From positions 10,149-74,148 of the forward strand of contig JBKJHT010000055.1 of the NCBI GenBank assembly GCA_046598945.1: DNA of 64,000 nt, written 5' to 3'. Below the pieces are notes generated by a model that made no database searches, was not told the origin of the DNA, and saw nothing but the letters and a program-made list of their open reading frames with translations. Both the position numbers and the translations under genes were made by a program. The DNA is from Burkholderiales bacterium. Its GTDB lineage: Bacteria > Pseudomonadota > Gammaproteobacteria > Burkholderiales > JALYOK01. Positions 18,992 to 57,789 of the stretch are shown in pieces (position 1 is the stretch's first letter; every line of letters begins with the position of its first letter).

Positions 18992-19549
18992 ATGATACAA
19001 GCTAACCCTGGCACAAGTGAAGTCGCCACCCTCGGCGGCGGTTGTTTTTGGTGCATTGAAGTCATTTTCGACGAGTTGCGCGGCGTCACCGATGTGTTGT
19101 CCGGCTACATGGGTGGCGCGGGTGCAAACCCGACTTATCGCGAGGTGTGTTCCGGAACCACCGGCCACGCGGAAGTGATTCAAGTGCGCTTCGATCCGGC
19201 CGTGATTTCGTTTCGCGAAATATTGGAGGTGTTTTTTACCGTACACGATCCAACCACGCTAAACAGTCAAGGCAACGACGTCGGCACGCAGTATCGCTCG
19301 GCGATCTTTTATCATTCGCCGCAACAACAATGCATCGCCGTCGAAACCGTTGCGGATTTTGATCGGGAACGCGTGTGGGATCGACCCATCGTGACGCAAA
19401 TCAGCGCTGCGCAAACCTTTTATCCGGCTGAGGATTATCATCAGGAATATTATATGAATAATCCCGCTCAAGGTTATTGCCGCATCGTGATCGCGCCGAA
19501 AGTGGCGAAGTTTCGCAAGCAATTTCTCGCGGCGCTGAAACGCACTTAA
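18992..19549 (+). CDS. msrA: peptide-methionine (S)-S-oxide reductase MsrA (cytoplasmic copy)
   Basis: 185-aa ORF with active-site GGGCFWCIE and no signal peptide. Confidence 0.95.
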   Translation: MIQANPGTSEVATLGGGCFWCIEVIFDELRGVTDVLSGYMGGAGANPTYREVCSGTTGHAEVIQVRFDPAVISFREILEVFFTVHDPTTLNSQGNDVGTQYRSAIFYHSPQQQCIAVETVADFDRERVWDRPIVTQISAAQTFYPAEDYHQEYYMNNPAQGYCRIVIAPKVAKFRKQFLAALKRT

Positions 19550-19624: not shown

Positions 19625-20152
19625 ATGGTTCACCCTTTCAATCAGTTTTCCACCCTAGAAGACCTCGGCGATCTCGCCCCGATTTTGCGCGCGCGGCCGA
19701 ATATCTTGGCCCTGCTGAAACTGTTTCGCTCATTACCGCCGGACGACGTCGACATCATCGCGCGCTACATGCACGGCTATGTTGCCTTGGAGGACACGGT
19801 AGTGTTCCGCGAAGGCGAGATCGGCGATGCGATGTTATTCATTGTCGAGGGCATGGTGCATGTGTATCGCGGCGATCCGGTGGACGGCGTGACTTTGGGA
19901 CTACTGGATCGTGGCAAATCCTTCGGCGAAATGGCGTTAATCGAAAATATGCCGCGTTCCGCCACCTGCGTCGTGCTGCACGATTGCATGTTCGCCGCGA
20001 TGACGCGAGCAAACTTCGAACACCTGACAGCCGACCATCCGCGCCTCGCGATCACCGTGTTGAAAGACGTCGCGCGCATGCTTTCCAATCGCCTGCGCCA
20101 CGCCAACGAAACACGCGAAGGTGGCATGTTCGATTTTCTTGACCTGCAATAA
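19625..20152 (+). CDS. cyclic nucleotide-binding domain protein (stand-alone cNMP domain)
   Basis: 175-aa ORF with the phosphate-binding cassette FGEMALIENMPRSATCV. No DNA-binding or effector domain follows. Confidence 0.8.
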   Translation: MVHPFNQFSTLEDLGDLAPILRARPNILALLKLFRSLPPDDVDIIARYMHGYVALEDTVVFREGEIGDAMLFIVEGMVHVYRGDPVDGVTLGLLDRGKSFGEMALIENMPRSATCVVLHDCMFAAMTRANFEHLTADHPRLAITVLKDVARMLSNRLRHANETREGGMFDFLDLQ

Positions 20153-20187: not shown

Positions 20188-21285
20188 CTATCGCGGGCCG
20201 TACAACTGCATGGTGCAGACATTTCCGTTCGGCCCAGAGTCGAATATGAAACTAACGATTTGCAATTTCACGTAGCGCGCTTTTACGGGTTCAAACGCAA
20301 ACTCGTGAAACGGCGCGCGCATATTTTTGTGGTTGGGGGTATCGAATTCGCCGATTTTTTTGAACGGCCCACGCTCCTCATCCGCGGCAAACAACGCGAG
20401 TTGCTTTAGGTTCCCGCTCCACTGGGATTCAACGTGAACGGCCAGCGTGTTGATGGCCGTCGGCTGTTCTTTGCGTAACCCGATAATTGCGAAGGATTGC
20501 TTGCTGAGTATCGTACATTTAGGCTGTTGAGTTTCGAGAATGCCGCGCCAGGCTTCTTCGCCGGCGGCGACAATCTGAGCGCCATTCTCGGGATCAAGCA
20601 GATTGACGCGTTCTTTAGCGACTGATTTCGCGGTCGTCTGCTCCTGAGGATCGGCCCCCGTCGTGTTATTCGCCACCGGTGGCGCTGTCGTACTCGTGTT
20701 CGTTGCCTCCGGCGCCGATGGCGGTGCGCCTTGAATAGCGACAGTGTGCGACACGCCGACCCAGCCAATCTGCTTGAGCACGGTCAACAGAGCAGCCGCG
20801 CCGACCAGCAACACACCGGCGCCGATGGCCCAACCAATCGGCGTTTGCCACAGCGTCTTAGGGACTTTCGTGTGTGAACTTTGCGGCGCGCCTACCGAGG
20901 CGCCGACCATTTGCCGGACGCTACGTTTGAGCTTCTCGTACTCGCGCTGCGCATTGGGATTGTCGCCGCGCAAATCCGCCGTTTGTAAATGACGGAACGC
21001 CAACGGTGCTTCGACAGCGTCGATTATTACCGGTACCAGCGCATTGCGTCTTTGCGCGCTCGATGCTTCGTTGACGACCCATTCCGAATTGATGGATTCT
21101 CGCGACCATACCACGATCGCACACTTGGCTTGGTCGAGCGCCTGCTCGATGACGCGATGATAGTTTTGGCCATGGGCGATATCGCGATCCCACCAAACCG
21201 AGAATCCAAGTTGCTCTAAGTGTTGGACAATTTTCCCGACGCGTTCGCGATCGGCGCTGGCATAACTTACGAATAGGTCGCTCAT
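20188..21285 (-). CDS. TIR domain protein with one TM helix and a C-terminal discoidin/galactose-binding-like domain
   Basis: N-terminus LFVSYASADRERV...VVWSRESINSEWVVNE fits a TIR fold with the conserved SxWxxxE glutamate. TM helix at aa ~150-176 (WAIGAGVLLVGAAALLTVL), then a P/T/A-rich linker. The C-terminal ARYVKLQIVS...CTMQLYG pattern is typical of F5/8 type C-like domains. Confidence 0.8.
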   Translation of the reverse strand: MSDLFVSYASADRERVGKIVQHLEQLGFSVWWDRDIAHGQNYHRVIEQALDQAKCAIVVWSRESINSEWVVNEASSAQRRNALVPVIIDAVEAPLAFRHLQTADLRGDNPNAQREYEKLKRSVRQMVGASVGAPQSSHTKVPKTLWQTPIGWAIGAGVLLVGAAALLTVLKQIGWVGVSHTVAIQGAPPSAPEATNTSTTAPPVANNTTGADPQEQTTAKSVAKERVNLLDPENGAQIVAAGEEAWRGILETQQPKCTILSKQSFAIIGLRKEQPTAINTLAVHVESQWSGNLKQLALFAADEERGPFKKIGEFDTPNHKNMRAPFHEFAFEPVKARYVKLQIVSFIFDSGPNGNVCTMQLYGPR

Positions 21286-21331
21286 GTTGACGGCGTCTCC
21301 CTCTGACCAAATGCACTAGTGTTGTGCCACG

Positions 21332-21358
21332 AGCCGCACCCGGCTTGCCTCGCGGCGT
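21332..21358. repeat. 27-nt intergenic box, copy A (GAGCCGCACCCggCTTGCCTCgcGGCG)
   Basis: 23 of 27 nt are identical to 23723-23749 in the same orientation. TGTTGTGC lies just upstream of both copies. Confidence 0.55.
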
Positions 21359-21423
21359 GGCATGCGCTGCGAGCCAGCATTCATGCGGCTTTGGCGTTAG
21401 GCCACCCAGCCGGCTCGATGATA

Positions 21424-22422
21424 CTACTGTTCGCGCAACACGCGAACCCGTTCCTGCGTCCCCGGATGGGTAGAAAAATAATCGCTGCCTTGCGCATCGT
21501 CCGCGCTACCGTGCGCTTTTTCTAATCGCTCCAGCATATTCGCCAGATAGCCCGGTGAGAGGCGGTTGTGCTTGAGCAGCGCCGCGCCATAAGCATCGGC
21601 CTCATGTTCGAACTCGCGCGAGTAGCGCGCCTGTAAAATCGCTGCCGGCGCACTGGCAAGAATGCTGCTGACATCGCCAATATACCAACTCACCACCAGT
21701 CCGACGATGGTGCCTTGCAGCAGTTGCCGCAAGCTGTGGCGTTTCTCCAAGTGACCGAGTTCATGGGCAAGCACGGCGTGGATTTCCCGATCGTCTTTCG
21801 TCAGCGCAACCAGCTCGTCGGTCATCACAATATCGCCCGAGGGCAAGGCGAATGCATTCGCGCCGATGCGCGGACTGTTGCGAAAGCGAATCGTATACGA
21901 CACTTTTTTTCCTTCCGCCGGCACGAGTTTCGCAAATCCCTCGATCAGTTGTTGTTGTCGCGCTGGCGCTAAATCACTCGGTTTGAAAACCGATTCGTCG
22001 AGGGTTTCCAACACATGTTCGCCCAACTTGGCGATGGATTTCTCCGGCATTTGTTGCGCAATCGCGTCGGCCAATAGCGGTAAGCCAAAGCGATAGCCCA
22101 CCCAGATGAATGCGATGCTGAACAGCAACGCACCGATCACCCACACGCCATTTTGTTGCCAGCGCACCACGGCTTTTTCTTGATAGCCGGTTTGTGCGAG
22201 CAGGGCGTTAAGTCCGGCGTGGTCGCTCACTTCGCACATCGCGCCGTCGGTAAAGGTGATCAGGCGCGGCGCGCTGCCCATGGGTTCGGACACGCGCAGA
22301 CTGGCGAGGGGCTCGTCGCGGGCGATGCCATCGCCTTCGATGCGCGCACGATCGCCCGCGACGGTCAGAGTTACCGCATGACGCGTGGCGCTTTTACCGT
22401 CGAAATAACTGGCTTGAATCAT
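21424..22422 (-). CDS. M48 family zinc metallopeptidase
   Basis: 332-aa ORF with HELGHLEKRH (HExxH), TM segments, and an N-terminal beta-rich domain (MIQASYFDGKSATRH...). Confidence 0.85.
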   Translation of the reverse strand: MIQASYFDGKSATRHAVTLTVAGDRARIEGDGIARDEPLASLRVSEPMGSAPRLITFTDGAMCEVSDHAGLNALLAQTGYQEKAVVRWQQNGVWVIGALLFSIAFIWVGYRFGLPLLADAIAQQMPEKSIAKLGEHVLETLDESVFKPSDLAPARQQQLIEGFAKLVPAEGKKVSYTIRFRNSPRIGANAFALPSGDIVMTDELVALTKDDREIHAVLAHELGHLEKRHSLRQLLQGTIVGLVVSWYIGDVSSILASAPAAILQARYSREFEHEADAYGAALLKHNRLSPGYLANMLERLEKAHGSADDAQGSDYFSTHPGTQERVRVLREQ

Positions 22423-22528
22423 GGTTGGCTCTGACTTGCGAGACTTATCTTAAGTTCGCGTTCAATCGCTACCGTCATCCCCGCTCCTAGAGGTTTAGTC
22501 GGGGGCGGGGACGGCGGGCATTGCTTGC

Positions 22529-23587
22529 TCAAAACGAAATATCCACATTGAACATCTCCGCCGTCTCCTCGCCGGTGGCGCTTTGTTGCTGGGACTGGCC
22601 AGCGAGGAACGCCTCAAGCGAACCCTGCGGTACAAACGCCATGGTTTCCAGGCGATAACGCAACAAACGAATCGTCGCGAAGGGTTTGTACAATCCGAGC
22701 GTGAGCACAATTAAAATGAAATTCGTGAACGAGATTACGAAAAGCTTGCGCGCCGAGACATTGCTGATGAAGCTATGTTCGCCGAGCTGGGTGTTGTTCC
22801 ATACGACATTTTGTAGCCGTGCCTGAATAAACGGGCCGATGATGGCTTGAAACACGGCGAAAGCCAAAAACAAAAGAATGATTGGGATAATTGCCGCGAA
22901 AGGCGACCGAGGTTCGTCGCCCGTGAGCATGATCATTTTTAAAAAGCCGCCGGCGAGAACACCAAATAAGAACAATGCGCCCAAGGCAAACAAACCCGCT
23001 ATGAAATAAACTTTGTAGTACTGCCCTGCGGTCGCCGAAAAACTAAACTTGGTTTGACCGTAGCGGCTGTTGTCGTGCTGGTACTTCTTGATTTGATGAA
23101 GGGTATAGGGCCAAACGGGCCAGATGAAACTCGCCAGTATCGCGAGCCAGAGAAACACGCGGTACGCCCCACTTGTGGCGCCATCGAAGCCGAAACGCAA
23201 GCCACGGTAACTGCTGTTGAACAGCTTAAATTGCAACGAGCGTTTGATCATCCAGGGAAACACCGCTGCCAACAAAATGATCAACACGAAACCCACCAGC
23301 GGCGCAAACTGCAGCGCCGCCTGAACCCCGATCAAAGCGCCAAAGGCGATCAAGCGGCCTTTCAAAATCGCGATTGGATTGCCGTGATAATCAAAGCTCG
23401 ATCCGGCGAGCGAGGTATTGCGATAAAGGTATTGCATCTTGCGCACCTTGGCCCAGGCGGAATAGATGCCAAGCGTGACGATAGTCAAGGCGATGTTGAC
23501 AATCCAAATACTGAAATATTCCGAGCCTTTGCCGCTGAAAATAAATGGCAGCGCGGTGGCCTGATTGTTGTTAGTTTCTTGTTCCAT
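22529..23587 (-). CDS. YjgN / DUF898 family inner-membrane protein
   Basis: GKGSEYFSIWIVNIALTIVTLGIYSAWAKVR and a repeated multi-TM structure. I prefer the ATG at 23587 (MEQETNNN). The 116-aa upstream extension in the ORF track looks non-coding. Confidence 0.8.
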   Translation of the reverse strand: MEQETNNNQATALPFIFSGKGSEYFSIWIVNIALTIVTLGIYSAWAKVRKMQYLYRNTSLAGSSFDYHGNPIAILKGRLIAFGALIGVQAALQFAPLVGFVLIILLAAVFPWMIKRSLQFKLFNSSYRGLRFGFDGATSGAYRVFLWLAILASFIWPVWPYTLHQIKKYQHDNSRYGQTKFSFSATAGQYYKVYFIAGLFALGALFLFGVLAGGFLKMIMLTGDEPRSPFAAIIPIILLFLAFAVFQAIIGPFIQARLQNVVWNNTQLGEHSFISNVSARKLFVISFTNFILIVLTLGLYKPFATIRLLRYRLETMAFVPQGSLEAFLAGQSQQQSATGEETAEMFNVDISF

Positions 23588-23722
23588 TGCAGCTCCCTGA
23601 TCATATTTCCGGCTAGTGTAGCTGATTCGACTGGCACAGCGTACTCGAGTGAAATTTTGGTTTCGCGGAGCCGTCACGCCAAGAGGCTCGCGGATGTTGT
23701 GCTGCAGCCTTGATGCCTCGGA

Positions 23723-23749
23723 GAGCCGCACCCCTCTTGCCTCCTGGCG
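23723..23749. repeat. 27-nt intergenic box, copy B (GAGCCGCACCCctCTTGCCTCctGGCG)
   Basis: Matches 21332-21358 (see that feature). Lies upstream of the DUF898 gene. Confidence 0.55.
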
Positions 23750-23884
23750 CAGCGTCTTTCGGGAGTCTGTTAGCATTTTCCCTGGTTGCGGGTATAGTGC
23801 ACGCACCCGAATCGCCGTGGCGTGGGATTGGGTAAGTTTCCGGCTCCACCACTGACAAATCGATTTGATCAAAGGTAGACCATC

Positions 23885-24490
23885 ATGAAATTGATAATCG
23901 GCTTCGCGGCATGCTTCATCGCGATGATCGCGCAACCGGGTGTGGCTGCGGAAAACGCAAATTTTGCGAAGGCAACCTTCGCCGGCGGCTGCTTTTGGTG
24001 CATGGAACCGCCGTTCGACAAATTGCCGGGCGTCGTCTCGACGACTTCAGGCTATACCGGCGGCAAAAAATTGAACCCGACCTATCGCGAAGTGTCGGAC
24101 GGCCAGACCGGCCATACCGAAGCGGTGCAGATCGTCTACGATCCGGCGAAGATTTCTTACGATCAATTGCTCAACGTCTTTTGGCGCAACATCGATCCGA
24201 CGGTGAAAGATCAACAGTTTTGCGATCACGGCTCGCAGTATCGCACTGGGATTTTCGCCCACGACGACGCGCAAAAAAAACTGGCTGACGCGGCCAAAGT
24301 GGCGCTGTTGAAATCCAAGCCGTTCAAGGCCGACATCGTCACGGAAATCACCGCGGCGAGCACGTTCTATCCGGCGGAAGACTATCACCAGGACTATTAC
24401 TTGAAGAATCCGGTAAAGTATAAATTCTATCGTTTCAATTGCGGCCGCGACGCGCGGCTGAAGGAATTGTGGGGCGAGTCACCGAAGTGA
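23885..24490 (+). CDS. msrA: peptide-methionine (S)-S-oxide reductase MsrA (exported copy)
   Basis: 201-aa ORF with signal peptide MKLIIGFAACFIAMIAQPGVAA and active-site GGCFWCME. Confidence 0.92.
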   Translation: MKLIIGFAACFIAMIAQPGVAAENANFAKATFAGGCFWCMEPPFDKLPGVVSTTSGYTGGKKLNPTYREVSDGQTGHTEAVQIVYDPAKISYDQLLNVFWRNIDPTVKDQQFCDHGSQYRTGIFAHDDAQKKLADAAKVALLKSKPFKADIVTEITAASTFYPAEDYHQDYYLKNPVKYKFYRFNCGRDARLKELWGESPK

Positions 24491-49305: not shown

Positions 49306-51255
49306 ATGGCTTTTTTCACGTTTGTGGCGATGCCGTTTGGAATCAAACAGGGCATCGATTTCAATCGTGTGTTTCGCGAGTACATCGAACCGGCGCTGAC
49401 GGAGGCGCACTTTGAGGTATTTCGCGCCGATGAAGAGATGCGTGCGGGCAATATCCGCACCGATATGTTTCAGCAATTGCTGATTGCCGATCTGGTCGTA
49501 GTCGATCTCTCAATCGACAATCCCAATGTTTGGTACGAGTTGGGCGTCCGTCACGCGCTGCGTTCCCGCGGCGTGATTCAGATCATTACGCAGCGTGAGC
49601 AAATGCCGTTCGATGTGTATACCGATCGGGTGATTCGCTACCACACCAAGGATGGCGTGCCGGATGCGGAATTTTTGCCGCACGACAAAACCAAGCTGGC
49701 GCAATTCGCGATGGAGACCATGGCCTCATGGCACGGGCGCAAGGTGAGTCCGGTCTATCATTTGCTGAGCTACCTCAAAGAGCCTGATTGGAAGACCTTG
49801 CGTGTGGGTGAGGCGCAGGAATTTTGGGAACGCTACGAGCGCTGGGAAGAGCGCATCGAAATCGCGCGCGATAGGCGCCGTCCCGGCGACATCATGTTGC
49901 TTGCCGACGAGGCGCCAACGCAGGCCTTGCATTTAGACGCCCATCGCGCGGCGGGCAAGGCGTTGCTAAAAATGGGGCAGTTCGCCTTTGCCTTGCATCA
50001 GTATAAGGAAGCACTTGAGGTCGATGCGACGGATTTGGACAGCCAACAGCAATCGGCCATTTTGCTCGGTCGGACCGGCCGCAACCAAGACGCCCGGGTC
50101 AAGATCGATAACCTGGTCGAGAAGTTTCCGAATAATGCCGAATGTTGGTCGCTCAAAGGACGCATCGGCAAGGAATCCTGGATCGACACTTGGCGCAAGG
50201 CGAACGGCGCCACAGCGCACATGCGCGCAACGGCGACCGAAGAAGTCGATTGGCTGGAAGAATCCATCGATGCCTACAAGACCGGCTTCATCAAAGACCC
50301 GAGCAATTTCTACACCGGTATCAATGCCGTGGTGTTGTCTTATTTGCATGAACATCTAACCGCTTCGAGCGCTTCGACAAAAGACCGCAAGGCGATGGAA
50401 GGCGGGGTGCGCTGGGTGGCGCGCTGCGCGAAAGAACGCGATAGCGCCAGTTACTGGGCACGCGTGACGCTGGCCGATTTGGCGCTGATGAGCGCACCGA
50501 AAAAAGAAGTCGAGCGCGCCTATAAAGACGCCGTTGCGATCAGTAGCAACAATTGGTTTGCCCTCGATTCCACCTGGCAACAACTCATGGTGTTGCGTGA
50601 TTTGGCGTTTCGCCCCGAGGAAGTGGGCGTCGCGCTCGATGTGATCGAGCGTGAGATCAATCGATTAAAACCACCCTGGCAGCCGCGGTTGACCATTTTG
50701 TTCAGCGGCCATATGGTGGATAAGCCGGATCGCGAGAACCCGCGCTTTCCCGATAGCAAGTCTGGCCTGGTGAGCGGCGCGATTCTGAGCAAACTCAACG
50801 ATCTGGGCGCGACCGAGACGGATTTGGCGATCTGCAGTGCTGCCTGCGGTGGCGATTTATTGTTCGCGGAACTGTGTCTCGCCCGCGGCATGGCGGTGCA
50901 TCTGTATTTGGCAATGGACGAGCCGGAGTTTCTGGAACGATCCGTTAACTTCGCCGGCGAGGAATGGAAGAATCGCTATTTTCGTGTGAAGGATCATCCG
51001 AAATCGACACTATTTATCCTCACCGAGGAGCTTGGGCCGGGAGAGGCAAATGCCAATCCGTTTGCGCGCAACAATATGCGCATGCTCTACAATGCCTTAG
51101 CATTGGGCACCGACAAAATTCGCTTTATCGCACTGTGGGACGGCCAAAAGGCCGACGGGACGGGCGGCACCCAGCATATGATCGAGACGGTCAAGAAACA
51201 TCTGGGCCAGGTGTGGGTACTCGATACCCAGCAAATTTTTGCGAGGGCGCAATGA
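49306..51255 (+). CDS. three-domain protein: N-terminal Rossmann-like 'MPFG' domain, TPR-like helical region (DUF4071/TRAF-binding-like), C-terminal LOG/SLOG-like domain
   Basis: 649 aa. aa 1-125: FVAMPFG...IDFNRVF...EVFRADEE...LLIADLVVVDLS..NPNVWYELGVRHA. aa ~190-455: helical repeats (AGKALLKMGQFAFALHQYKEALEVD; NAECWSLKGRI; DPSNFYTGINAVVL). aa 461-640: ILFSGH, ICSAACGGDLLFAE, FIALWDGQKADGTGGTQHMIE (compare LOG PGGxGTxEE). SD GGAGG is present. Confidence 0.8.
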   Translation: MAFFTFVAMPFGIKQGIDFNRVFREYIEPALTEAHFEVFRADEEMRAGNIRTDMFQQLLIADLVVVDLSIDNPNVWYELGVRHALRSRGVIQIITQREQMPFDVYTDRVIRYHTKDGVPDAEFLPHDKTKLAQFAMETMASWHGRKVSPVYHLLSYLKEPDWKTLRVGEAQEFWERYERWEERIEIARDRRRPGDIMLLADEAPTQALHLDAHRAAGKALLKMGQFAFALHQYKEALEVDATDLDSQQQSAILLGRTGRNQDARVKIDNLVEKFPNNAECWSLKGRIGKESWIDTWRKANGATAHMRATATEEVDWLEESIDAYKTGFIKDPSNFYTGINAVVLSYLHEHLTASSASTKDRKAMEGGVRWVARCAKERDSASYWARVTLADLALMSAPKKEVERAYKDAVAISSNNWFALDSTWQQLMVLRDLAFRPEEVGVALDVIEREINRLKPPWQPRLTILFSGHMVDKPDRENPRFPDSKSGLVSGAILSKLNDLGATETDLAICSAACGGDLLFAELCLARGMAVHLYLAMDEPEFLERSVNFAGEEWKNRYFRVKDHPKSTLFILTEELGPGEANANPFARNNMRMLYNALALGTDKIRFIALWDGQKADGTGGTQHMIETVKKHLGQVWVLDTQQIFARAQ

Positions 51256-52382
51256 CATTCGAAGATAAATTATCGCGCACCGGTCCGAAGCGTCTATTGT
51301 CGCTGGACGGCGGTGGTATCCGTGGACTGATCAGCGTCGCGGTGTTGGCGGCGATCGAGTCGATGTTGCAGCGCCGATTCAAGCGCGGCGACGATTTCGT
51401 TCTGGCCGACTACTTCGACTATATCGCCGGCACCAGCACCGGCGGGATCATTGCCACCTGCTTGGCTTGGGGAATGCGCGTCGCGCAAGTACGCGAGTTT
51501 TATCAAACCAATGGCCAGACTATGTTCGACAAGGCGTCGATCCTGAAGCGCTTTCACTATAAGTACGACGACAAAGCCTTGGCGCAAAGACTACGCAAAG
51601 TATTCAGCGAAAATGGCGCGCCGAGTACACTTGGCTCGACACGCTTGCGAACCCTGTTGATGTTGGTGATGCGCAATAGCAGCACCGATTCGCCGTGGCC
51701 GCTATGCAACTATCCGGCGGCTAAATATAACGCTCGCGATCGCATCGATTGCAACCTCCGGTTGCCGCTATGGCAACTGGTGCGCGCGAGTACAGCGGCG
51801 CCAACTTATTTCCCACCCGAAGTAATTGATGTCGGCGAACACCGCTTCACGTTTGTCGATGGTGGCATCACGCCGTACAACAATCCGGCGTTACAGTTGT
51901 ATTTGATGGCGACAGTCCCGGAATACAAACTCGCGTGGCCGATTGGTGAGGAGAATTTATTGGTTGTGTCGATCGGAACGGGCATTAGCCCGGAGGCGAA
52001 CGAAAATCTCGTGCCAGGGGAAATGAACTTGCTTTACAACGCCGCCTCGCTGCCATCGGCGCTGATGTTCGGTGCGCTGTATCAACAGGATTTGCTCTGC
52101 CGCGTCCTGGGCAATTGTTTGCACGGCGATAAATTGGATCGCGAAATCGGCGATTTGCGCGGTACGCCAAGCCGGGCGGGAACAAGCAAACAATTCACCT
52201 ATGTTCGTTACAACGCCGAGTTGACCGAGGCGGGATTAGCCAAACTCGATTTAAAAGATATCGACGCGAAACACGTGCAGCAACTGGATTCCATTACATA
52301 CATGTCCGAGCTCACGCGCGTCGGTGAGGCGGTGGGGCGGCAAGTAAGCGAAGCGCATTTTCCGACGGTGTTCAACTGTTAA
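51252..52382 (+). CDS. patatin-like phospholipase
   Basis: 376 aa from an ATG that overlaps the upstream stop (ATGA). Oxyanion hole LSLDGGGIRG, nucleophile elbow IAGTSTGG and catalytic Asp FVDGGITPYNNPA are all intact. Confidence 0.9.
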   Translation: MTFEDKLSRTGPKRLLSLDGGGIRGLISVAVLAAIESMLQRRFKRGDDFVLADYFDYIAGTSTGGIIATCLAWGMRVAQVREFYQTNGQTMFDKASILKRFHYKYDDKALAQRLRKVFSENGAPSTLGSTRLRTLLMLVMRNSSTDSPWPLCNYPAAKYNARDRIDCNLRLPLWQLVRASTAAPTYFPPEVIDVGEHRFTFVDGGITPYNNPALQLYLMATVPEYKLAWPIGEENLLVVSIGTGISPEANENLVPGEMNLLYNAASLPSALMFGALYQQDLLCRVLGNCLHGDKLDREIGDLRGTPSRAGTSKQFTYVRYNAELTEAGLAKLDLKDIDAKHVQQLDSITYMSELTRVGEAVGRQVSEAHFPTVFNC

Positions 52383-52397
52383 TGAGGTAAGGATTTA

Positions 52398-53612
52398 ATG
52401 GCTGGCATCTTCATCAGTTATCGCGAGCGCGATTCAAAGGGGTGGGCGCTGAGCTTGCGCGACCGCTTGGTGGACGAGTTTGGCGAGGCGCGGGTGTTCC
52501 TCGACAAAGACACATTGAAGGCGGGGAAATGGAAAGATCAAATCGAGCAGGCTTTGGGTGATTGCAATATCGTTCTCGTGGTGATTGGGCGTGGCTGGCT
52601 GAATGCTCAAGACGATGAGGGTCGCCAACGGCTGATGTCGGAGGATGACGTGCATCGTCGCGAAATTGCGCTGGCCCTCGCTCGGCCTGACGTCACCGTC
52701 ATTCCAGTGGTGGTGGACGGCGCGACAATGCCGAAGCCCGACCAATTGCCGCAAGACATACGTGGTTTGATTCAGCAACAGTCCCGCGCGATAAGCGACA
52801 GCGCGGCACACCGTAGAGTGGATTTGGACGGACTCATGGCGGATATTCGGCGCGTCGGCCGTTTCGAGCCCAAGCCGGTATCGACGTCCACTCTTACGCC
52901 GACACCACCCTTGGCGCCGATCAAGAATAGTGGCAAAGTCATAGCGGCTCTGTGTTTACTCGCCTTGATCTTTTTTGCCGCAATCGCGGAAGAGGGCATG
53001 GATCACGATACTAAAGTGGCGGGTATTTTATTCGGCGCTATTGCGCTTTGGCTGGCGGTTAGCGGATTTAAGGACATCAACGCAGGCCTGGTGAAAGGGC
53101 GCGGGCGGGCCATTGCGGCAATGGGTTTGGGTGGTTTGGCGACGTTGGGAATGTTCGGCGCGTTGACCCTGACCGAACCGGCAGTTGCGCCGAACGCAGG
53201 TAGTCTGGGCCCCTCAGCGACGATAGTTGCGCCCCAACCCGCGCCATCGTATCAACCGCCGCCGATGCAAACCCCTACCGCACCACCTGCGCTGGCTCCG
53301 AGCGCCAAGCCGGCCAAACCGGCGAGTCGGCAAAAGTCCGCACCGGTTGAGCGGGTTCAAACAGTCAATTTTCAGGGCATTTGGCAGGACGAAAACGATG
53401 GGTCGATTTTCTACGCGATCCGTCAGGAAAATAACCTCGCCCGTTTGCAGGAATACAACGCGCTCGGCGTTCTATCGTTCGACGCTATCGGCAAACCCAC
53501 AGAAAATGAATTGATGATCGATCACCCGATGTTGATCGTCAATTTGGCCCTATCGGACAATGGTCAACGAATCAATGGAAGCGTGAAACAAAAGGCTAAC
53601 GGTTTCCAGTAA
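52398..53612 (+). CDS. TIR domain protein with three TM helices and a small extracytoplasmic C-terminal domain
   Basis: 404 aa. The TIR fold spans aa 1-140 (IFISYRERD..., NIVLVVIG, DDVHRREIALAL with the conserved Glu, VIPVVVDG). TM helices at aa 180-197, 207-224 and 237-258. A Pro/Ala-rich linker follows, then an ~85-aa beta-rich domain. An SD (GAGG/AAGGA) lies in the 15-nt gap after the patatin gene. Confidence 0.85.
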   Translation: MAGIFISYRERDSKGWALSLRDRLVDEFGEARVFLDKDTLKAGKWKDQIEQALGDCNIVLVVIGRGWLNAQDDEGRQRLMSEDDVHRREIALALARPDVTVIPVVVDGATMPKPDQLPQDIRGLIQQQSRAISDSAAHRRVDLDGLMADIRRVGRFEPKPVSTSTLTPTPPLAPIKNSGKVIAALCLLALIFFAAIAEEGMDHDTKVAGILFGAIALWLAVSGFKDINAGLVKGRGRAIAAMGLGGLATLGMFGALTLTEPAVAPNAGSLGPSATIVAPQPAPSYQPPPMQTPTAPPALAPSAKPAKPASRQKSAPVERVQTVNFQGIWQDENDGSIFYAIRQENNLARLQEYNALGVLSFDAIGKPTENELMIDHPMLIVNLALSDNGQRINGSVKQKANGFQ

Positions 53613-54054
53613 ACCCATATTGCTTAGAAAAGTGAACCTCGATTCCCTCGACTCTCAATTCGCCGAATTGTTGCGTCCGCTGGTTGAATAATGCCGTGTT
53701 TGTTGTGACGCAGATCGTCAGTCTTGCATCGCTGCGTTAATCTGGTAGCAGATCAGCCGATGACCGGCGCATCATTTTTCTTACGTGTTAATGGAAATAA
53801 CGTATATAATTTAAACAGTTAAACGGCAAAATGGCTGCCTCACCCATTCCCATTCAACGTCGGCTGATGGAAAAACCGACTCTGGCCCGTTAATTGCTTG
53901 GTAAAAGCATAAAACGCCCGCTTAACAAATTAGTTGCAAAACATTTTGGAAAATGTTATCACCAATGGATGACAATCGGCCTTCCATTGAAAAATGAGCA
54001 TTCACCAGTCAACCAAGACGCAATTAACCGCCCCCAAGTGTGAGGAATATAGCA

Positions 54055-55200
54055 ATGAGTTCCGCTAACCGTGGCGACCATTTAACTTCGCGAGAGCATA
54101 TGTCCATCCACGAGATTCGTTCCGCGTCGTCCTACCGAAGCACAGTGCTGGTGATCGATGACCAATCGACGGGGCGCGTCATTCTCGAAGAAATTGTTAG
54201 AGGCGTAGACCCGAGTATCCAAGTACAAACATTCGCCGATCCGTTAGCCGCGATTGAATGGGCAAAAACCCATCCCGTGGATTTGGTGCTTACCGACTAT
54301 AAAATGCCGCAATTGGATGGCGTCGAAACTATCCGTCGCATTCGCGGCATTTATTCATGCATGGACGTGCCGATTATCGTCGTTACCGTACTTGAGGATC
54401 GCGAGATTCGTTACAAGGCACTGGAAGCCGGCGCGACGGATTTTTTAACCAAGCCCGTCGATCAATATGAATGTCGGGCGCGTTGCCGCAATCTGCTCAC
54501 GATGCGGCGACAGCAGATCGTCATCAAGGATCGCGCGCGATTGTTGGAACAGCAGGTGACTGAGGCCGTGCGCGACATTCGACTGCGTGAAGTGGAAACG
54601 ATCTTCCGACTTGGTAAAGCGGGTGAGTTTAGGGATGAAGAAACCGGCAATCACATTATCCGTATGGCCAAGTATTCGCGCCTAATCGCCGAAGACTTCC
54701 GCCTGTCGGATGACGAATGCGACCTGATTGAGCTTGCGGCGCCAATGCACGACATCGGAAAGATAGGCATTCCCGATCATATTCTGTTGAAGCCTAGCGG
54801 TTTGGGCTCGGATGAAACGGCGAATATGCAGCGCCATCCGCGCATCGGCTTCGATATTCTTAAAGATAGCCCATCGAAGTATCTGCGCATGGGGGCAGTG
54901 ATCGCGCTAGGTCACCATGAAAAATTCAATGGCGAAGGTTATCCGAGCCGGTTGGTCGGCGAGGATATTCCACTCGCCGCGCGTATTGTTGCCGTCGCAG
55001 ACGTGTTCGATGCGCTTACTTCCGTTCGACCATACAAAGAGGCATGGAAAGTAAGTGAAGCGTTAGGCTATCTAACGCAGCAACGTGGCCAGCATTTCGA
55101 CCCAAGATGCATCGATTCCTTCATGCGCCAGTTAGATAAGGTGCTGGCTATCCGCGATAAATTTCAAGACGTTACGCGAAGTCAAGCAAAGCTCGTATAG
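54055..55200 (+). CDS. rpfG: two-component response regulator with HD-GYP c-di-GMP phosphodiesterase domain (RpfG-like)
   Basis: REC domain (VLVIDDQ...DLVLTDYKMPQLDG) plus HD-GYP (HDIGKIG, HHEKFNGEGYP). The ATG at 54055 has a GAGGA SD 7 nt upstream. Confidence 0.88.
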   Translation: MSSANRGDHLTSREHMSIHEIRSASSYRSTVLVIDDQSTGRVILEEIVRGVDPSIQVQTFADPLAAIEWAKTHPVDLVLTDYKMPQLDGVETIRRIRGIYSCMDVPIIVVTVLEDREIRYKALEAGATDFLTKPVDQYECRARCRNLLTMRRQQIVIKDRARLLEQQVTEAVRDIRLREVETIFRLGKAGEFRDEETGNHIIRMAKYSRLIAEDFRLSDDECDLIELAAPMHDIGKIGIPDHILLKPSGLGSDETANMQRHPRIGFDILKDSPSKYLRMGAVIALGHHEKFNGEGYPSRLVGEDIPLAARIVAVADVFDALTSVRPYKEAWKVSEALGYLTQQRGQHFDPRCIDSFMRQLDKVLAIRDKFQDVTRSQAKLV

Positions 55201-55224
55201 CGGTCGGCCCAACCCATAATAACC

Positions 55225-57789
55225 ATGTCAAAAGCGCTGCAGCTTTCTTGGCTGACCAAAATCAGAACGAAATTCGCATCCCGTACCGATACGGAACATG
55301 AGCAGGCAATTTTGCGCCTGGCGATCAGCGGTATTCTGATCGGTTATATTTTCCTTCGTTTGAGCGGAGAGTCGAGCCCGCTCGGATTGGCCGGATGGCG
55401 CTGGCCCCTGTCGATCCTCTACCTCCTCGTCGCGAGCGGTATTCTTGCCTGGATACTCGCCTCACCGACGATCAATGTTCCACGGCGGCTGTTTGGCGCG
55501 ATCGCGGATATGGGCATGTCGAGTTACGGCATGGCTGTGACGGGGGATGTGGGAACCGTCATATTCGGCGTGTACCTATTCGTAACATTTGGTAATGGCT
55601 TTCGCTTCGGCAAACCCTATTTGTTTTTTTCCCAGGCGCTGAGCATCGTCGGGTTTTCCTTGGTGTTGGCAACCAACGGTTATTGGAAGTCCCACATTGT
55701 CTTGGGCCTCGGCTTATTGGTCAGCCTGGTGGTATTGCCACTTTATGTAGCAACACTCTTAACGCGAATCACTGAAGCGCGCAAGCGAGCCGAGGAAGCC
55801 AGCGGGGCCAAAAGCCGTTTCCTTGCGGTCATGAGCCACGAAATGCGTACGCCTTTGAATGGCATTATTGGCATGAATGACCTGTTATCGTCGACCGAAC
55901 TGAACGAGGAACAAAAAGATCTGGCGAATACGATGCAGAATTCGGCGAGAGTTTTGCTTTCCTTAATCGAAAATGTTTTGGATATAGCGAAGATAGAGGC
56001 TGGCAAGCTTACAACCGAAGTGATCGATTTCGATTTGCATGCGCTGGTCAATAACACCGTCAAGATATTGGCGCCACAAGCACACGTGAAAAAATTGCAG
56101 TTGCAGCTGCAAATTAACCCGCGCGCCGGTTATTTGTTGAAAGGCGATCCCCATCAACTACGCCAGGTGCTGATCAATTTGGTCGGCAACGCGATCAAGT
56201 TCACCGAACAGGGCGAAGTGTTGTTGCGCGTGGGAATTGTTCAAGAAGATGCGACGGGTATTCGGTTACGCTTCGAGGTGATAGATACCGGAATCGGTAT
56301 TCCGCTTGAAGCGCAGGCGAGTATTTTCGACAGTTTTACACAAGCGGATCAATCCACGACACGATGTTACGGCGGCACAGGGCTGGGCACGACAATTTCA
56401 AAGCAACTTGTGGAATTAATGGGTGGAAAGATTGGGCTTTCTAGCCAAGTGGGTAAAGGGACTGCATTTTGGTTTGAATTACCGTTGCTCAAGCAGCAAA
56501 TGAGCGACGAAACTGCCGAGAGGATGTTCCGCCTCGATAATAGTCATGTGTTGGTGTTGACCCATTCAGATCAGGACGCATCGACAATCGGTGAATATTT
56601 AACCGGTTGGGGGGCACGTTACCAACGCGTATCCAACCTCGCTGGCGCCCTTGAGTTAATAGATCGAGGCGAAGACCATTTTGATGTGGCGATCATCGAC
56701 GCGACTACGATTGAAGATGAGAATGAAGCCGCCAGCCAAATTGGTAAGCGCAATAAACGTGGAAAGCGTATCGCCCTGTTATTGGTAAATACCCAGATGG
56801 CGCTGGATGTCGATACAGAATTGAGCGCGTCGGGCTTTTCCGCGCTATTAGAGAACGCCACCAACAAAACCCTGCTATTCAATGCGATTCACGCAGCGGC
56901 AACCGTCGTGGATGAACAGACTTCGGCTGATGTCATTCCTCTCACGCGCAGATCTTCCGAGCAAATCCGCGAGGCGAATCGCCTACGCGTCCTGGTTGCC
57001 GAGGACAATCCGACGAATCAAAAAGTGATCCGCAAAATATTGGAACGCGCTGGACATGTGGTTCAAGTCGTCGAAAATGGCGAGGCCGCGCTGGATGCGT
57101 TGGAGCAAAACGAATTCGATATTGTTATTGTCGACATGCACATGCCGATTATGGGCGGAGTCGAAGTCGCGAAGTTTTATCGCTTCGTTGATCGCAAACT
57201 ACCACGCATGCCTTTTGTCATGCTGACCGCAAATGCCACTACCGAAGCCATGGAGGAATGCAATCAAGCCGGAATTGACGCGTTCCTAACAAAGCCGGTC
57301 GAAAGCCGGGAGCTCCTCGCGACCATTGCGCGTTTAACTGGCGACGAAAGATCAATCGCCGACGCGGAATCAACCAGCTCAGCGTGGTTGCACAGCACGC
57401 AAAGGCTCAGTCCGACGGAATCTCAGTCGGATTTGTTAAACCTTGTTACGTTGCGCGATCTGGAACGACTTGGCAATGATAGCCGTTTCTTAGCGAGTCT
57501 AATTAACGGTTTTCTTTTCGACAGCGAAGCGTTGATGAATAAAATGCAGATCGCGCTGAACGACGAGGAGTACGAACAGTTCAAAGACCTGGCGCATGGG
57601 CTCAAGGGCAGCGCGGGAAGCGTCGGCGCGACGGCACTGTTCAAGGTGAACTCGAAAGTCTTAAACGTCTCACATAAAGATTGCGCGCGCGAGGGCGTAC
57701 GGCTGCTCGCCGAAATCAAATCAATTTTCAGCGAGACACGAGTGGCGCTCAATGATTACCTGGAGCGCGGCGAAAAAGCCGTCATCTAG
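55225..57789 (+). CDS. rpfC: hybrid sensor histidine kinase (multi-TM input, HisKA, HATPase, REC, HPt; RpfC-like)
   Basis: 854 aa with ~5-6 N-terminal TM helices, H-box SHEMRTPLNGIIGM, G2 box GTGLGTTISKQLVELMGG, REC (VLVAEDNPTNQKV...DIVIVDMHMP) and HPt (HGLKGSAGSVGA). Confidence 0.88.
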   Translation: MSKALQLSWLTKIRTKFASRTDTEHEQAILRLAISGILIGYIFLRLSGESSPLGLAGWRWPLSILYLLVASGILAWILASPTINVPRRLFGAIADMGMSSYGMAVTGDVGTVIFGVYLFVTFGNGFRFGKPYLFFSQALSIVGFSLVLATNGYWKSHIVLGLGLLVSLVVLPLYVATLLTRITEARKRAEEASGAKSRFLAVMSHEMRTPLNGIIGMNDLLSSTELNEEQKDLANTMQNSARVLLSLIENVLDIAKIEAGKLTTEVIDFDLHALVNNTVKILAPQAHVKKLQLQLQINPRAGYLLKGDPHQLRQVLINLVGNAIKFTEQGEVLLRVGIVQEDATGIRLRFEVIDTGIGIPLEAQASIFDSFTQADQSTTRCYGGTGLGTTISKQLVELMGGKIGLSSQVGKGTAFWFELPLLKQQMSDETAERMFRLDNSHVLVLTHSDQDASTIGEYLTGWGARYQRVSNLAGALELIDRGEDHFDVAIIDATTIEDENEAASQIGKRNKRGKRIALLLVNTQMALDVDTELSASGFSALLENATNKTLLFNAIHAAATVVDEQTSADVIPLTRRSSEQIREANRLRVLVAEDNPTNQKVIRKILERAGHVVQVVENGEAALDALEQNEFDIVIVDMHMPIMGGVEVAKFYRFVDRKLPRMPFVMLTANATTEAMEECNQAGIDAFLTKPVESRELLATIARLTGDERSIADAESTSSAWLHSTQRLSPTESQSDLLNLVTLRDLERLGNDSRFLASLINGFLFDSEALMNKMQIALNDEEYEQFKDLAHGLKGSAGSVGATALFKVNSKVLNVSHKDCAREGVRLLAEIKSIFSETRVALNDYLERGEKAVI

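Follow-up and report, generated by a model that had tools for sequence, protein, structure and literature searches.

A putative membrane-spanning TIR protein with a SUN/discoidin-like outer domain in a Burkholderiales bacterium

Described systems and the gene in question

To our knowledge, all of the experimentally characterised bacterial TIR systems sense cytoplasmic events. Here we analysed an orphan gene in a stretch of 64,000 nucleotides from a Burkholderiales bacterium (GenBank assembly GCA_046598945.1, contig JBKJHT010000055.1, positions 10,149 to 74,148 of the forward strand; this whole stretch is called the window, and positions are counted from its first letter). The gene lies at 20188..21285 on the minus strand and encodes a protein that consists of an N-terminal TIR domain, a single transmembrane (TM) helix, a disordered linker and a C-terminal beta-sandwich. 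What appears to be new here is that a TIR effector is joined, by way of a membrane helix, to a putative SUN/discoidin-like sensor cassette outside the cytoplasm. The closest enzymes are the bacterial TIR NADases or cyclases, namely AbTir, PdTIR, BtpA/TcpB and ThsB of the Thoeris system, which have the TIR fold and the glutamate of the W-x-x-x-E motif in common with the window protein; NAD+ cleavage on oligomerisation is also predicted for it. On the other hand, these enzymes are soluble cytoplasmic or secreted proteins, either fused to a coiled coil or standing alone, and ThsB is operon-linked to ThsA, whereas the window TIR is anchored in the membrane, coupled to an ectodomain and not accompanied by an adjacent effector. 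Indeed, no ThsA-type effector (SIR2-SLOG, Macro-TM and others) adjoins the gene in the window or in about ten orthologue contexts.

There are several systems in which a sensor and a TIR domain are fused. In PycTIR, TIR-STING and TIR-SAVED, the sensor governs TIR oligomerisation and NADase activity within one polypeptide, and the same principle is proposed here for the window protein. However, their sensors are cytoplasmic and bind cyclic nucleotides of an adjacent cyclase, while the window protein has a putative extracytoplasmic sensor and no linked cyclase. With regard to lectin-like sensors, Kaur, Burroughs, Iyer and Aravind (2021; PMC8195603) proposed that the NPCBM discoidin-fold domain and the FGS lectin domain act as sensors in fusions with TIR effectors, which can be exchanged for effector-associated domains (EADs); these sensors were described as intracellular, located in neighbourhoods of STAND-NTPases or caspases, and enriched among multicellular bacteria. 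The window protein is similar to these fusions in that a discoidin-superfamily/lectin fold and a TIR domain occur in one protein and the TIR can be swapped with an EAD. It differs from them in that its lectin-like domain would be placed outside the cytoplasm via the TM helix and is nearer to SUN or F5/8-C than to NPCBM, and in that the gene is solitary. Pfam gave no NPCBM match for the window protein or for 36 diverse domains of its relatives.

Eukaryotic proteins show other likenesses. Metazoan Toll-like and IL-1 receptors are also single-pass proteins with an outside ligand-binding domain (ligand binding being presumed in our case) and a cytoplasmic TIR, and the best structural match of the window TIR is TRR-2 of Hydra; in our proposal, too, the ectodomain would bring the TIRs together for activation. 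In contrast, these receptors have a C-terminal TIR (type I) and an LRR or Ig ectodomain, whereas the window protein has an N-terminal TIR (type II) and a beta-sandwich. Moreover, the TIRs of Toll-like receptors are scaffolds without a functional catalytic glutamate, and there is no evidence that the whole architectures share common descent. The eukaryotic SUN proteins (SUN1/2, Sad1 and UNC-84) have the same domain order and gave the top Foldseek matches of the sandwich, and Sad1_UNC is found in its relatives. They carry a trimerising coiled coil and a chromatin- or lamin-binding N-terminal domain, where the window protein has a disordered linker and a TIR domain, with Sad1_UNC below threshold. 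A survey of E. coli TIR systems stated that the transmembrane and ectodomain features of Toll-like receptors seem to be absent from bacterial TIR systems (PMC11350192), and in recent systematic work on Thoeris, TM helices were described for the effectors but not for the sensor TIRs. We found no published description of a TIR-TM-linker-sandwich family; the literature coverage was incomplete and this is absence of evidence only. A conserved catalytic-type TIR that is one membrane helix away from a lectin-like domain would be a directly testable case of trans-envelope TIR control.

TIR domain, membrane segment and outer domain

The open reading frame (ORF) at 20188-21285 (-) is the longest one in that interval, starts with ATG and encodes 365 aa plus a stop codon. 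Alignment showed that homologues and the window protein have a common N-terminus. It is not a chance ORF, because about 100 full-length homologues (38-95% identity, 360-390 aa) show the same architecture and dN/dS was 0.30 against L001, a Pseudomonadota metagenome-assembled genome (MAG) with 95% identity. This dN/dS value was 0.09 for the TIR domain and 0.36 for the ectodomain, based on only 35 substitutions. Matches in reference genomes all came from soil MAGs, assigned to Burkholderiales or other betaproteobacteria and to Acidobacteriota. From an alignment of 48 sequences, AlphaFold2 gave a model of the whole protein (pLDDT 82 overall) that consists of a confident TIR domain (aa 1-132), a disordered segment (aa 132-148), a helix (aa 150-172), a second disordered segment (aa 177-223) and a confident all-beta domain (aa 226-364). 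In a 48-sequence alignment, S67, E68, W69, V70, N72, E73 and the stretch P-L-x-F-R-H-L-Q (aa 94-101) are invariant, as are W246, F265, G306, P307 and P317 in the C-terminal domain.

The cytoplasmic TIR domain (aa 1-132; 20890..21285, minus strand) was recognised by Pfam, PDB sequence matches, Foldseek and the model. Pfam TIR_2 (PF13676) matched aa 5-119 with E=3.6e-26 and 92.5 bits against a cut-off of 28, covering profile positions 2-121 of 122, and pLDDT was mostly above 90 across aa 1-130 with one 10-residue block at 77. The closest solved TIR sequences in a PDB sequence search were AbTir (E=8e-7), PdTIR, BtpA and TcpB. W69-x-x-x-E73 was aligned onto the 'DWTNYE' motif of AbTir in a sequence alignment limited to aa 3-75, which makes E73 the candidate catalytic glutamate (codon at 21067..21069, minus strand; coordinates verified), and the second half of the TIR carries a family-specific PLxFRHLQ motif. 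An earlier note on this DNA had recognised the N-terminal TIR by LFVSYASADRERV and the glutamate of SEWVVNE, and both of them are present. E73 is invariant in all 108 non-identical family TIRs and in all 17 TIR-TM-X paralogues (125/125), a set in which E68 varies. Judging from these alignments, the TIR domain keeps a catalytic-type glutamate signature and is probably NAD-cleaving. The model shows a flavodoxin-like TIR fold: in Foldseek, the TIR part was closest to the TIR of Hydra TRR-2 (4w8h; TMt 0.86, rmsd 1.9 A) and also matched AbTir in complex with the NAD analogue 3AD (7uxu; TMt 0.75).

Known defence families covered only this part of the protein. The NCBIfam model of Thoeris type III ThcB4 gave 19.4 bits against a cut-off of 220, and NCBIfam matches were confined to the TIR portion; Pfam ThsB_TIR gave 22.2 bits, far under the TIR_2 score. 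Similarly, PADLOC-DB v2 matched only the TIR portion (PDC-S66, SAVED-TIR, Aga-TIR and ThsB) without any full-length system match, and the same holds for its models of PycTIR, TIR-STING and TIR-SAVED.

The TIR domain is followed by the juxtamembrane cap LWQTPIGW and the single TM helix (aa 145-172; 20770..20853, minus strand), which were predicted from hydropathy, the model, the shared motif described below and the distribution of Lys and Arg (K+R). The Kyte-Doolittle maximum of 2.23 at aa 152-170 marks the only hydrophobic segment of the 365-aa protein, in agreement with the model helix and with the single TM helix of the earlier note. The subsequent linker, presumably periplasmic (aa 173-224; 20614..20769, minus strand), is rich in T, A, P and N as previously noted (T9, A9, P6 and N4 among the 52 residues of aa 177-228), and its pLDDT was below 50 at aa 177-223. 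Its length varies from 32 to 74 aa across the family and its sequence is not conserved.

The sandwich is predicted to be extracytoplasmic (periplasmic) with an N-in/C-out topology, because four lines of evidence point in this direction. The N-terminus is the TIR domain itself without signal peptide, and only one TM helix is present. The K+R count shows a positive-inside bias (2.4 on the N side vs 1.0 on the C side of the TM helix; N>C in 39 of 48 sequences). The cysteines C257 (codon at 20515..20517) and C357 (20215..20217, coordinates verified; both on the minus strand), which are the two halves of a predicted disulfide, occur in an all-or-none manner: 69 domains have both, 116 have neither and 1 has a single one, the counts being not phylogenetically independent. 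Finally, in relatives, cleavable Sec-type signal peptides and VWA precede the same sandwich domain.

The beta-sandwich itself (aa 225-365; 20191..20613, minus strand) was identified by AlphaFold2, Foldseek, Pfam matches of relatives and phmmer. When the C-terminal region was modelled alone with 68 sequences, pLDDT was 93.7 and pTM 0.87 for an all-beta sandwich at aa 226-364, and this is consistent with the C-terminal domain of about 140 aa in the earlier note. In the fold check against PDB, Foldseek returned 204 chains at E<=1e-3, every one of which belongs to the galactose-binding-domain-like superfamily. The SUN domains of SUN2 and SUN1 headed the list (E ~1e-7, TMq 0.69-0.74), and IFT25, APC10/Doc1, the discoidin domain of muskelin and many CBM32 modules came close behind, with E values of 1e-7 to 1e-5 for these matches together; the CBM32 likeness is at the level of fold. 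In Pfam, the window protein did not reach the threshold of F5_F8_type_C (PF00754; 13.7 bits vs 28.2, E=0.069, aa 274-345), was sub-threshold for the NedA-like galactose-binding domain (E=0.081, aa 274-345) and had no match to Sad1_UNC (PF07738) at E<=1. Among the 36 diverse relative domains, Sad1_UNC was found in 22 and F5_F8_type_C in 17 (E<=0.01). Pfam scans of the relatives from the phmmer search described below reached E=4e-27 and E=6e-21 for these two families, respectively. A domain profile gave weak matches to PDB sequences, namely the C-terminal module of a GH29 protein (0.006), IFT25 (0.075) and SUN2 (~0.9). On the basis of the models, the ectodomain is predicted to be a galactose-binding-domain-like jelly roll placed between SUN and F5/8-C. 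The F5/8 type C ending claimed in the earlier note is therefore right for superfamily and fold but not for family, because the window protein is sub-threshold, its relatives match Sad1_UNC at least as well and SUN1/2 are the top structural matches. AlphaFold2 showed no trimeric coiled coil before the sandwich, and the preceding 50 residues are disordered and of low complexity without any helix.

The conserved loop TPNHKNMRAPFHE (aa 316-328; 20302..20340, minus strand) has no regular secondary structure in the AlphaFold2 model. In the family, P317 is invariant, and conservation is 90% or higher at N318, N321, P325, H327 and E328; the motif N-x(5,6)-P-[YF]-[QH]-E-F is retained across the wider domain family. 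From this conservation, the loop is a candidate ligand-binding surface.

The same domain occurs in many other proteins. A word-indexed homology search with the ectodomain alone gave just 7 matches, vs 238 proteins at E<=1e-3 in an exhaustive phmmer search with aa 215-365 against 1.84 billion representatives, and the 150 best representatives of the latter were taken for a census. This census contained 31 TIR-TM proteins with 1-3 domain copies, about 37 proteins in which 1-4 tandem copies come after a long N-terminal region (VWA in 9 of the 10 scanned, most of them behind an N-terminal signal-like hydrophobic segment) and about 42 proteins with a short N-terminal region before the domain, which in most cases includes a TM segment; the rest includes fragments. 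EAD11 is an 'effector-associated domain', a death-like adaptor of predicted conflict systems. It is combined with a TM segment, TPR and the SUN/discoidin-like domain, in this order, in three representatives, P0249, P0251 and P0259 (locus L111 1460-2731). The cap WWxTxPG is common to the TIR-bearing and the TIR-less TM-ectodomain forms (61 matches vs a shuffle rate of 0.5%), and because of this shared cap the TM-linker-sandwich is regarded as the conserved module and as a mobile evolutionary unit. TIR modules with 45-60% identity to the window TIR are also found in front of a TM helix and FGE-sulfatase (FGS), PDZ, trypsin-like or DUF3616 regions. A family of envelope-sensing TIRs had been suggested from the two TIR genes of the window; in terms of architecture, the idea holds for a wider class of TIRs that are split by the membrane and carry different domains outside. 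However, the two TIRs of the window do not form a pair of close paralogues, as they share 24% identity with a pairwise E=8e-5. The portable cassette is seen with TIR, EAD11, VWA or a short cytoplasmic tail, and its ligand could explain what soil bacteria monitor at their envelope.

Some features of these relatives may be added. The EAD11 form could be placed in a single genomic context, L111, a short contig on which its neighbours encode DUF2911 and penicillin amidase. The secreted VWA proteins P0127-P0135 and P0150 have 2-4 tandem domain copies, and some of them show weak matches to bpX1 of the MoxR-vWA-beta-propeller ternary system. The VWA gene at L113 7001-9556 is preceded by two same-strand genes (362 and 932 aa) without Pfam match. 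In general, the neighbourhoods of the EAD11-TM-ectodomain and VWA-ectodomain relatives were uninformative, with short contigs and neighbours lacking Pfam matches.

Possible modes of action

We propose, as a tentative reading that we hold to be a little short of probable, that the protein is a one-component, single-pass receptor-effector of the inner membrane, in which outside-in clustering driven by the ectodomain would activate the TIR NADase. The sandwich would bind a conserved extracytoplasmic ligand, possibly an envelope or matrix component such as a glycan or peptide, or else a molecule that is exposed or delivered by envelope damage or phage attack. Ligand binding would alter the oligomeric state within the membrane, and the cytoplasmic TIRs would be drawn into head-to-tail assemblies, which bacterial TIR enzymes require for their composite active site. 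The assembled TIRs would then hydrolyse or cyclise NAD+, and the output may be NAD+ depletion leading to growth arrest or dormancy, an ADP-ribose-derived signal, or both. The dependence of TIR NADase activity on oligomerisation is established for SARM1, AbTir and TIR-STING filaments. The sensor-like nature of the ectodomain is supported by its confident fold, by the conserved loop residues and by EAD11 in the position of TIR on the same cassette, and it agrees with the independent proposal of Kaur et al. on lectin-fold sensors and with the fusion of the same TIR clade through a TM helix to FGS, PDZ and trypsin-like regions. It is most likely that the protein acts alone, because no partner gene is conserved beside the gene. 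Moreover, the conserved ectodomain and the syntenic, non-island context favour a conserved cue from the cell or environment, such as envelope/matrix glycans or envelope damage. More doubtful is a wider reading, in which this cassette detects an extracytoplasmic cue (envelope/matrix glycans, damage or phage adsorption), clustering switches on the TIR NADase, sister families recruit EAD11, and the whole would represent the logic of Toll-like receptors in a bacterial form for the first time, while its outside domain may be kin to the one from which eukaryotic SUN domains arose. If this is true, a modular sensor cassette would be common to enzymatic and adaptor-based cell-fate pathways.

Several observations weigh against the receptor-effector reading or narrow it. 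The top structural match of the TIR, Hydra TRR-2, is a non-enzymatic metazoan receptor TIR, and the disulfide C257-C357, which is probably formed, was deduced from co-occurrence alone. Short TIR-less TM-ectodomain forms exist, and the cassette therefore has a function for which TIR is not required. The ectodomain is conserved as much as the TIR without hypervariability, which argues against recognition of fast-evolving phage proteins. In addition, the architecture was not found on any viral contig, annotated phage or plasmid and the gene is syntenic among close relatives, and thus a classical anti-phage role is not indicated. In the neighbourhood check, the orthologues lay among housekeeping or transport genes and outside defence islands, which makes an anti-phage role less likely. 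Such a housekeeping-like setting points to physiological tasks other than classical phage defence, for instance in envelope stress, in dormancy or in social behaviour, and this would broaden the view of bacterial TIRs.

Instead of acting alone, the membrane TIR may produce a cADPR-type signal for effectors encoded elsewhere, e.g. the TPR-S/patatin/TIR operon of the window, or may bind them by TIR-TIR contact, in a Thoeris-like or TLR/MyD88-like manner. TPR-S, a patatin phospholipase and a second membrane TIR are indeed encoded at 49306-53612 in the same window, but the two window TIRs share just 24% identity. It is also true that the literature predicts TPR-S-type domains in TIR signalling and that TPR effectors of new Thoeris types sense cADPR, that several homologue contigs have additional TIR_2 genes within 6-7 kb, and that the EAD11 swap shows the compatibility of the cassette with adaptor-type domains. 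Nevertheless, characterised Thoeris TIRs are operon-linked to their effectors, while an effector or SLOG/patatin gene was beside the TIR gene in none of the about ten orthologue neighbourhoods, and we consider the signal-producing or adaptor role unlikely. A different idea is that the protein tethers or organises the envelope like SUN proteins, with the sandwich holding an envelope partner (peptidoglycan, the tail of an outer-membrane protein or exopolysaccharide) and the TIR serving as a docking or regulatory module. The order of an N-terminal domain, TM helix, luminal linker and C-terminal sandwich is as in SUN proteins (PMC2837639), SUN1 and SUN2 are the top structural matches (TMq 0.69-0.74), and Sad1_UNC is found in relatives up to E=4e-27 (22 of the 36 diverse domains), whereas the profile gave only E ~0.9 for SUN2 with better scores for IFT25 and CBM32-like chains, the linker is disordered without the trimerising coiled coil and a KASH-like partner is not known in bacteria. 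Tandem domains after secreted VWA adhesion-type domains, the TIR-less anchored forms and the chromosomal housekeeping context also fit a tether, but the invariant catalytic-type glutamate and the strong purifying selection on the TIR are hard to reconcile with a passive anchor, making this role quite improbable.

The anchor might also keep the TIR dilute and inactive until the juxtamembrane region is cut, be it through envelope stress or by a protease (the M48 peptidase next door, for example), and the freed TIR oligomerises and depletes NAD+. This would leave the conserved ectodomain without a role, and we give it very little weight, although aa 132-148 between the TIR and the TM helix are disordered and removal of the TM helix unleashes the toxicity of Dictyostelium TirC, for which proteolytic release was proposed (PMC13142454). 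An M48 peptidase gene is located 138 bp upstream on the same strand, but its pair with DUF898 is independent (26 of 35 loci, none with the TIR gene), and the M48 gene is missing from most orthologue contexts. In one distant orthologue locus (L071), an M48 gene is two genes upstream, but its identity of no more than 30% over 138 aa could have arisen by chance.

Genomic neighbourhood and other features of the window

The synteny of DUF898 - M48/DUF7092 - TIR - cNMP-binding - msrA - HAD - M19 was kept in close relatives only (L001-L003, L014 and L074). About ten more distant orthologues have dissimilar neighbours: a MacB-type ABC transporter and a GDSL lipase; an RND efflux pump; MFS transporters; a MoxR/DUF58/RDD cluster; HSP90/YchF; and a GGDEF-EAL protein. 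Neither a recurring partner gene nor a known defence gene was present among these about ten neighbourhoods, and in this sense the gene is an orphan, as the earlier note had called it. In an unbootstrapped neighbour-joining tree, Acidobacteriota orthologues were interspersed among betaproteobacterial ones, which hints at inter-phylum transfer of the TIR gene, with the MAG taxonomy as a caveat. In one clade (L068, L072, L075 and the JGI contig of P0079; about 43-44% identity), three downstream MFS transporter genes are kept while the upstream side differs each time, placing the TIR gene at a synteny breakpoint. Extra TIR_2 genes are found a few kb from the orthologue at L007 5392-5781, at L069 13501-14058 and on the JGI contig of P0079 (14517 onwards); the second TIR of L007 is immediately downstream and 48% identical over aa 1-129.

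On its upstream side, the gene is separated from the same-strand M48 gene by 138 bp, instead of the 139 bp given earlier. The genes for DUF898 and then M48 with N-terminal DUF7092 at 21424-23935 (-) form a conserved two-gene membrane module (loci L076-L110), and this pair is kept in 26 of the 35 metagenome loci of other lineages, in none of which the TIR gene is present. The adjacency to the M48/DUF898 pair described in the earlier note is real, but a functional link was ruled out by the TIR-free conservation of the pair, and the adjacency in the window is therefore lineage-specific. The gene on the other side, convergent and 35 bp away, encodes a stand-alone cNMP-binding protein of 175 aa (19625-20152, plus strand) that resembles the sensor half of the PADLOC models PycTIR and 'Effector TIR' (E ~1e-10 to 6e-12). 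It was the only one of ten window neighbours matched in a PADLOC scan, at domain level. Its role as the sensor of a 'split PycTIR' was considered but is not supported, because the match concerns the cNMP domain only, and the gene is kept only in close syntenic relatives and is absent beside distant orthologues. It is a separate convergent gene, and no pyrimidine cyclase is present with the TIR gene.

The region is bracketed by two msrA paralogues of about 50% identity (18992-19549 and 23885-24490, both on the plus strand), the latter with an N-terminal signal-like segment, and both are kept in syntenic relatives. Allelic replacement at this fixed locus was considered for L014, where the apparent gene identity was about 45% vs about 80% for the flanks, and was rejected as a frameshift artefact, since three-frame translation gave about 80%. 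In this long-read MAG (L014 6900-11000), frameshifts across the M48, TIR, cNMP and HAD genes mimic divergence in tblastn, and they are probably indel errors of assembly.

The 138-bp upstream intergenic region (21286..21423, minus strand) contains a GGGAG Shine-Dalgarno-like element. Neither a sigma-70-like promoter nor a terminator was detected on its minus strand, and a sigma-54 promoter was rejected, as the TGGCAC box is present but the spacing of the GC element is wrong and L002, L003 and L074 do not keep this element. Every syntenic relative has two conserved inverted repeats after the stop codon of M48, CGAGCCrG...CTGGCTCG and GCCACG...CGTGGC, and an extra insertion of 18 nt is located inside the first one in the window and L001. 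These hairpins were considered as a possible terminator or attenuator, but their fold is no stabler than that of shuffled sequence (z=-0.46), with only 2 compensatory pairs.

The TPR-S/patatin/TIR operon at 49306-53612 lies about 28 kb away, as stated in the earlier note. Its TIR protein (52398-53612, plus strand) is also membrane-split: there are about three hydrophobic segments at aa ~175-260, besides a stretch rich in proline and a C-terminal region of small size. The ORFs for TPR-S (49306-51255) and patatin (50964-52382) overlap as listed, and therefore the patatin start is probably further downstream. Directly downstream of the operon on the same strand, the region at 54040-57789 (+) encodes a response regulator with HD-GYP-type HD_5 and a hybrid histidine kinase (HisKA-HATPase-REC-Hpt).

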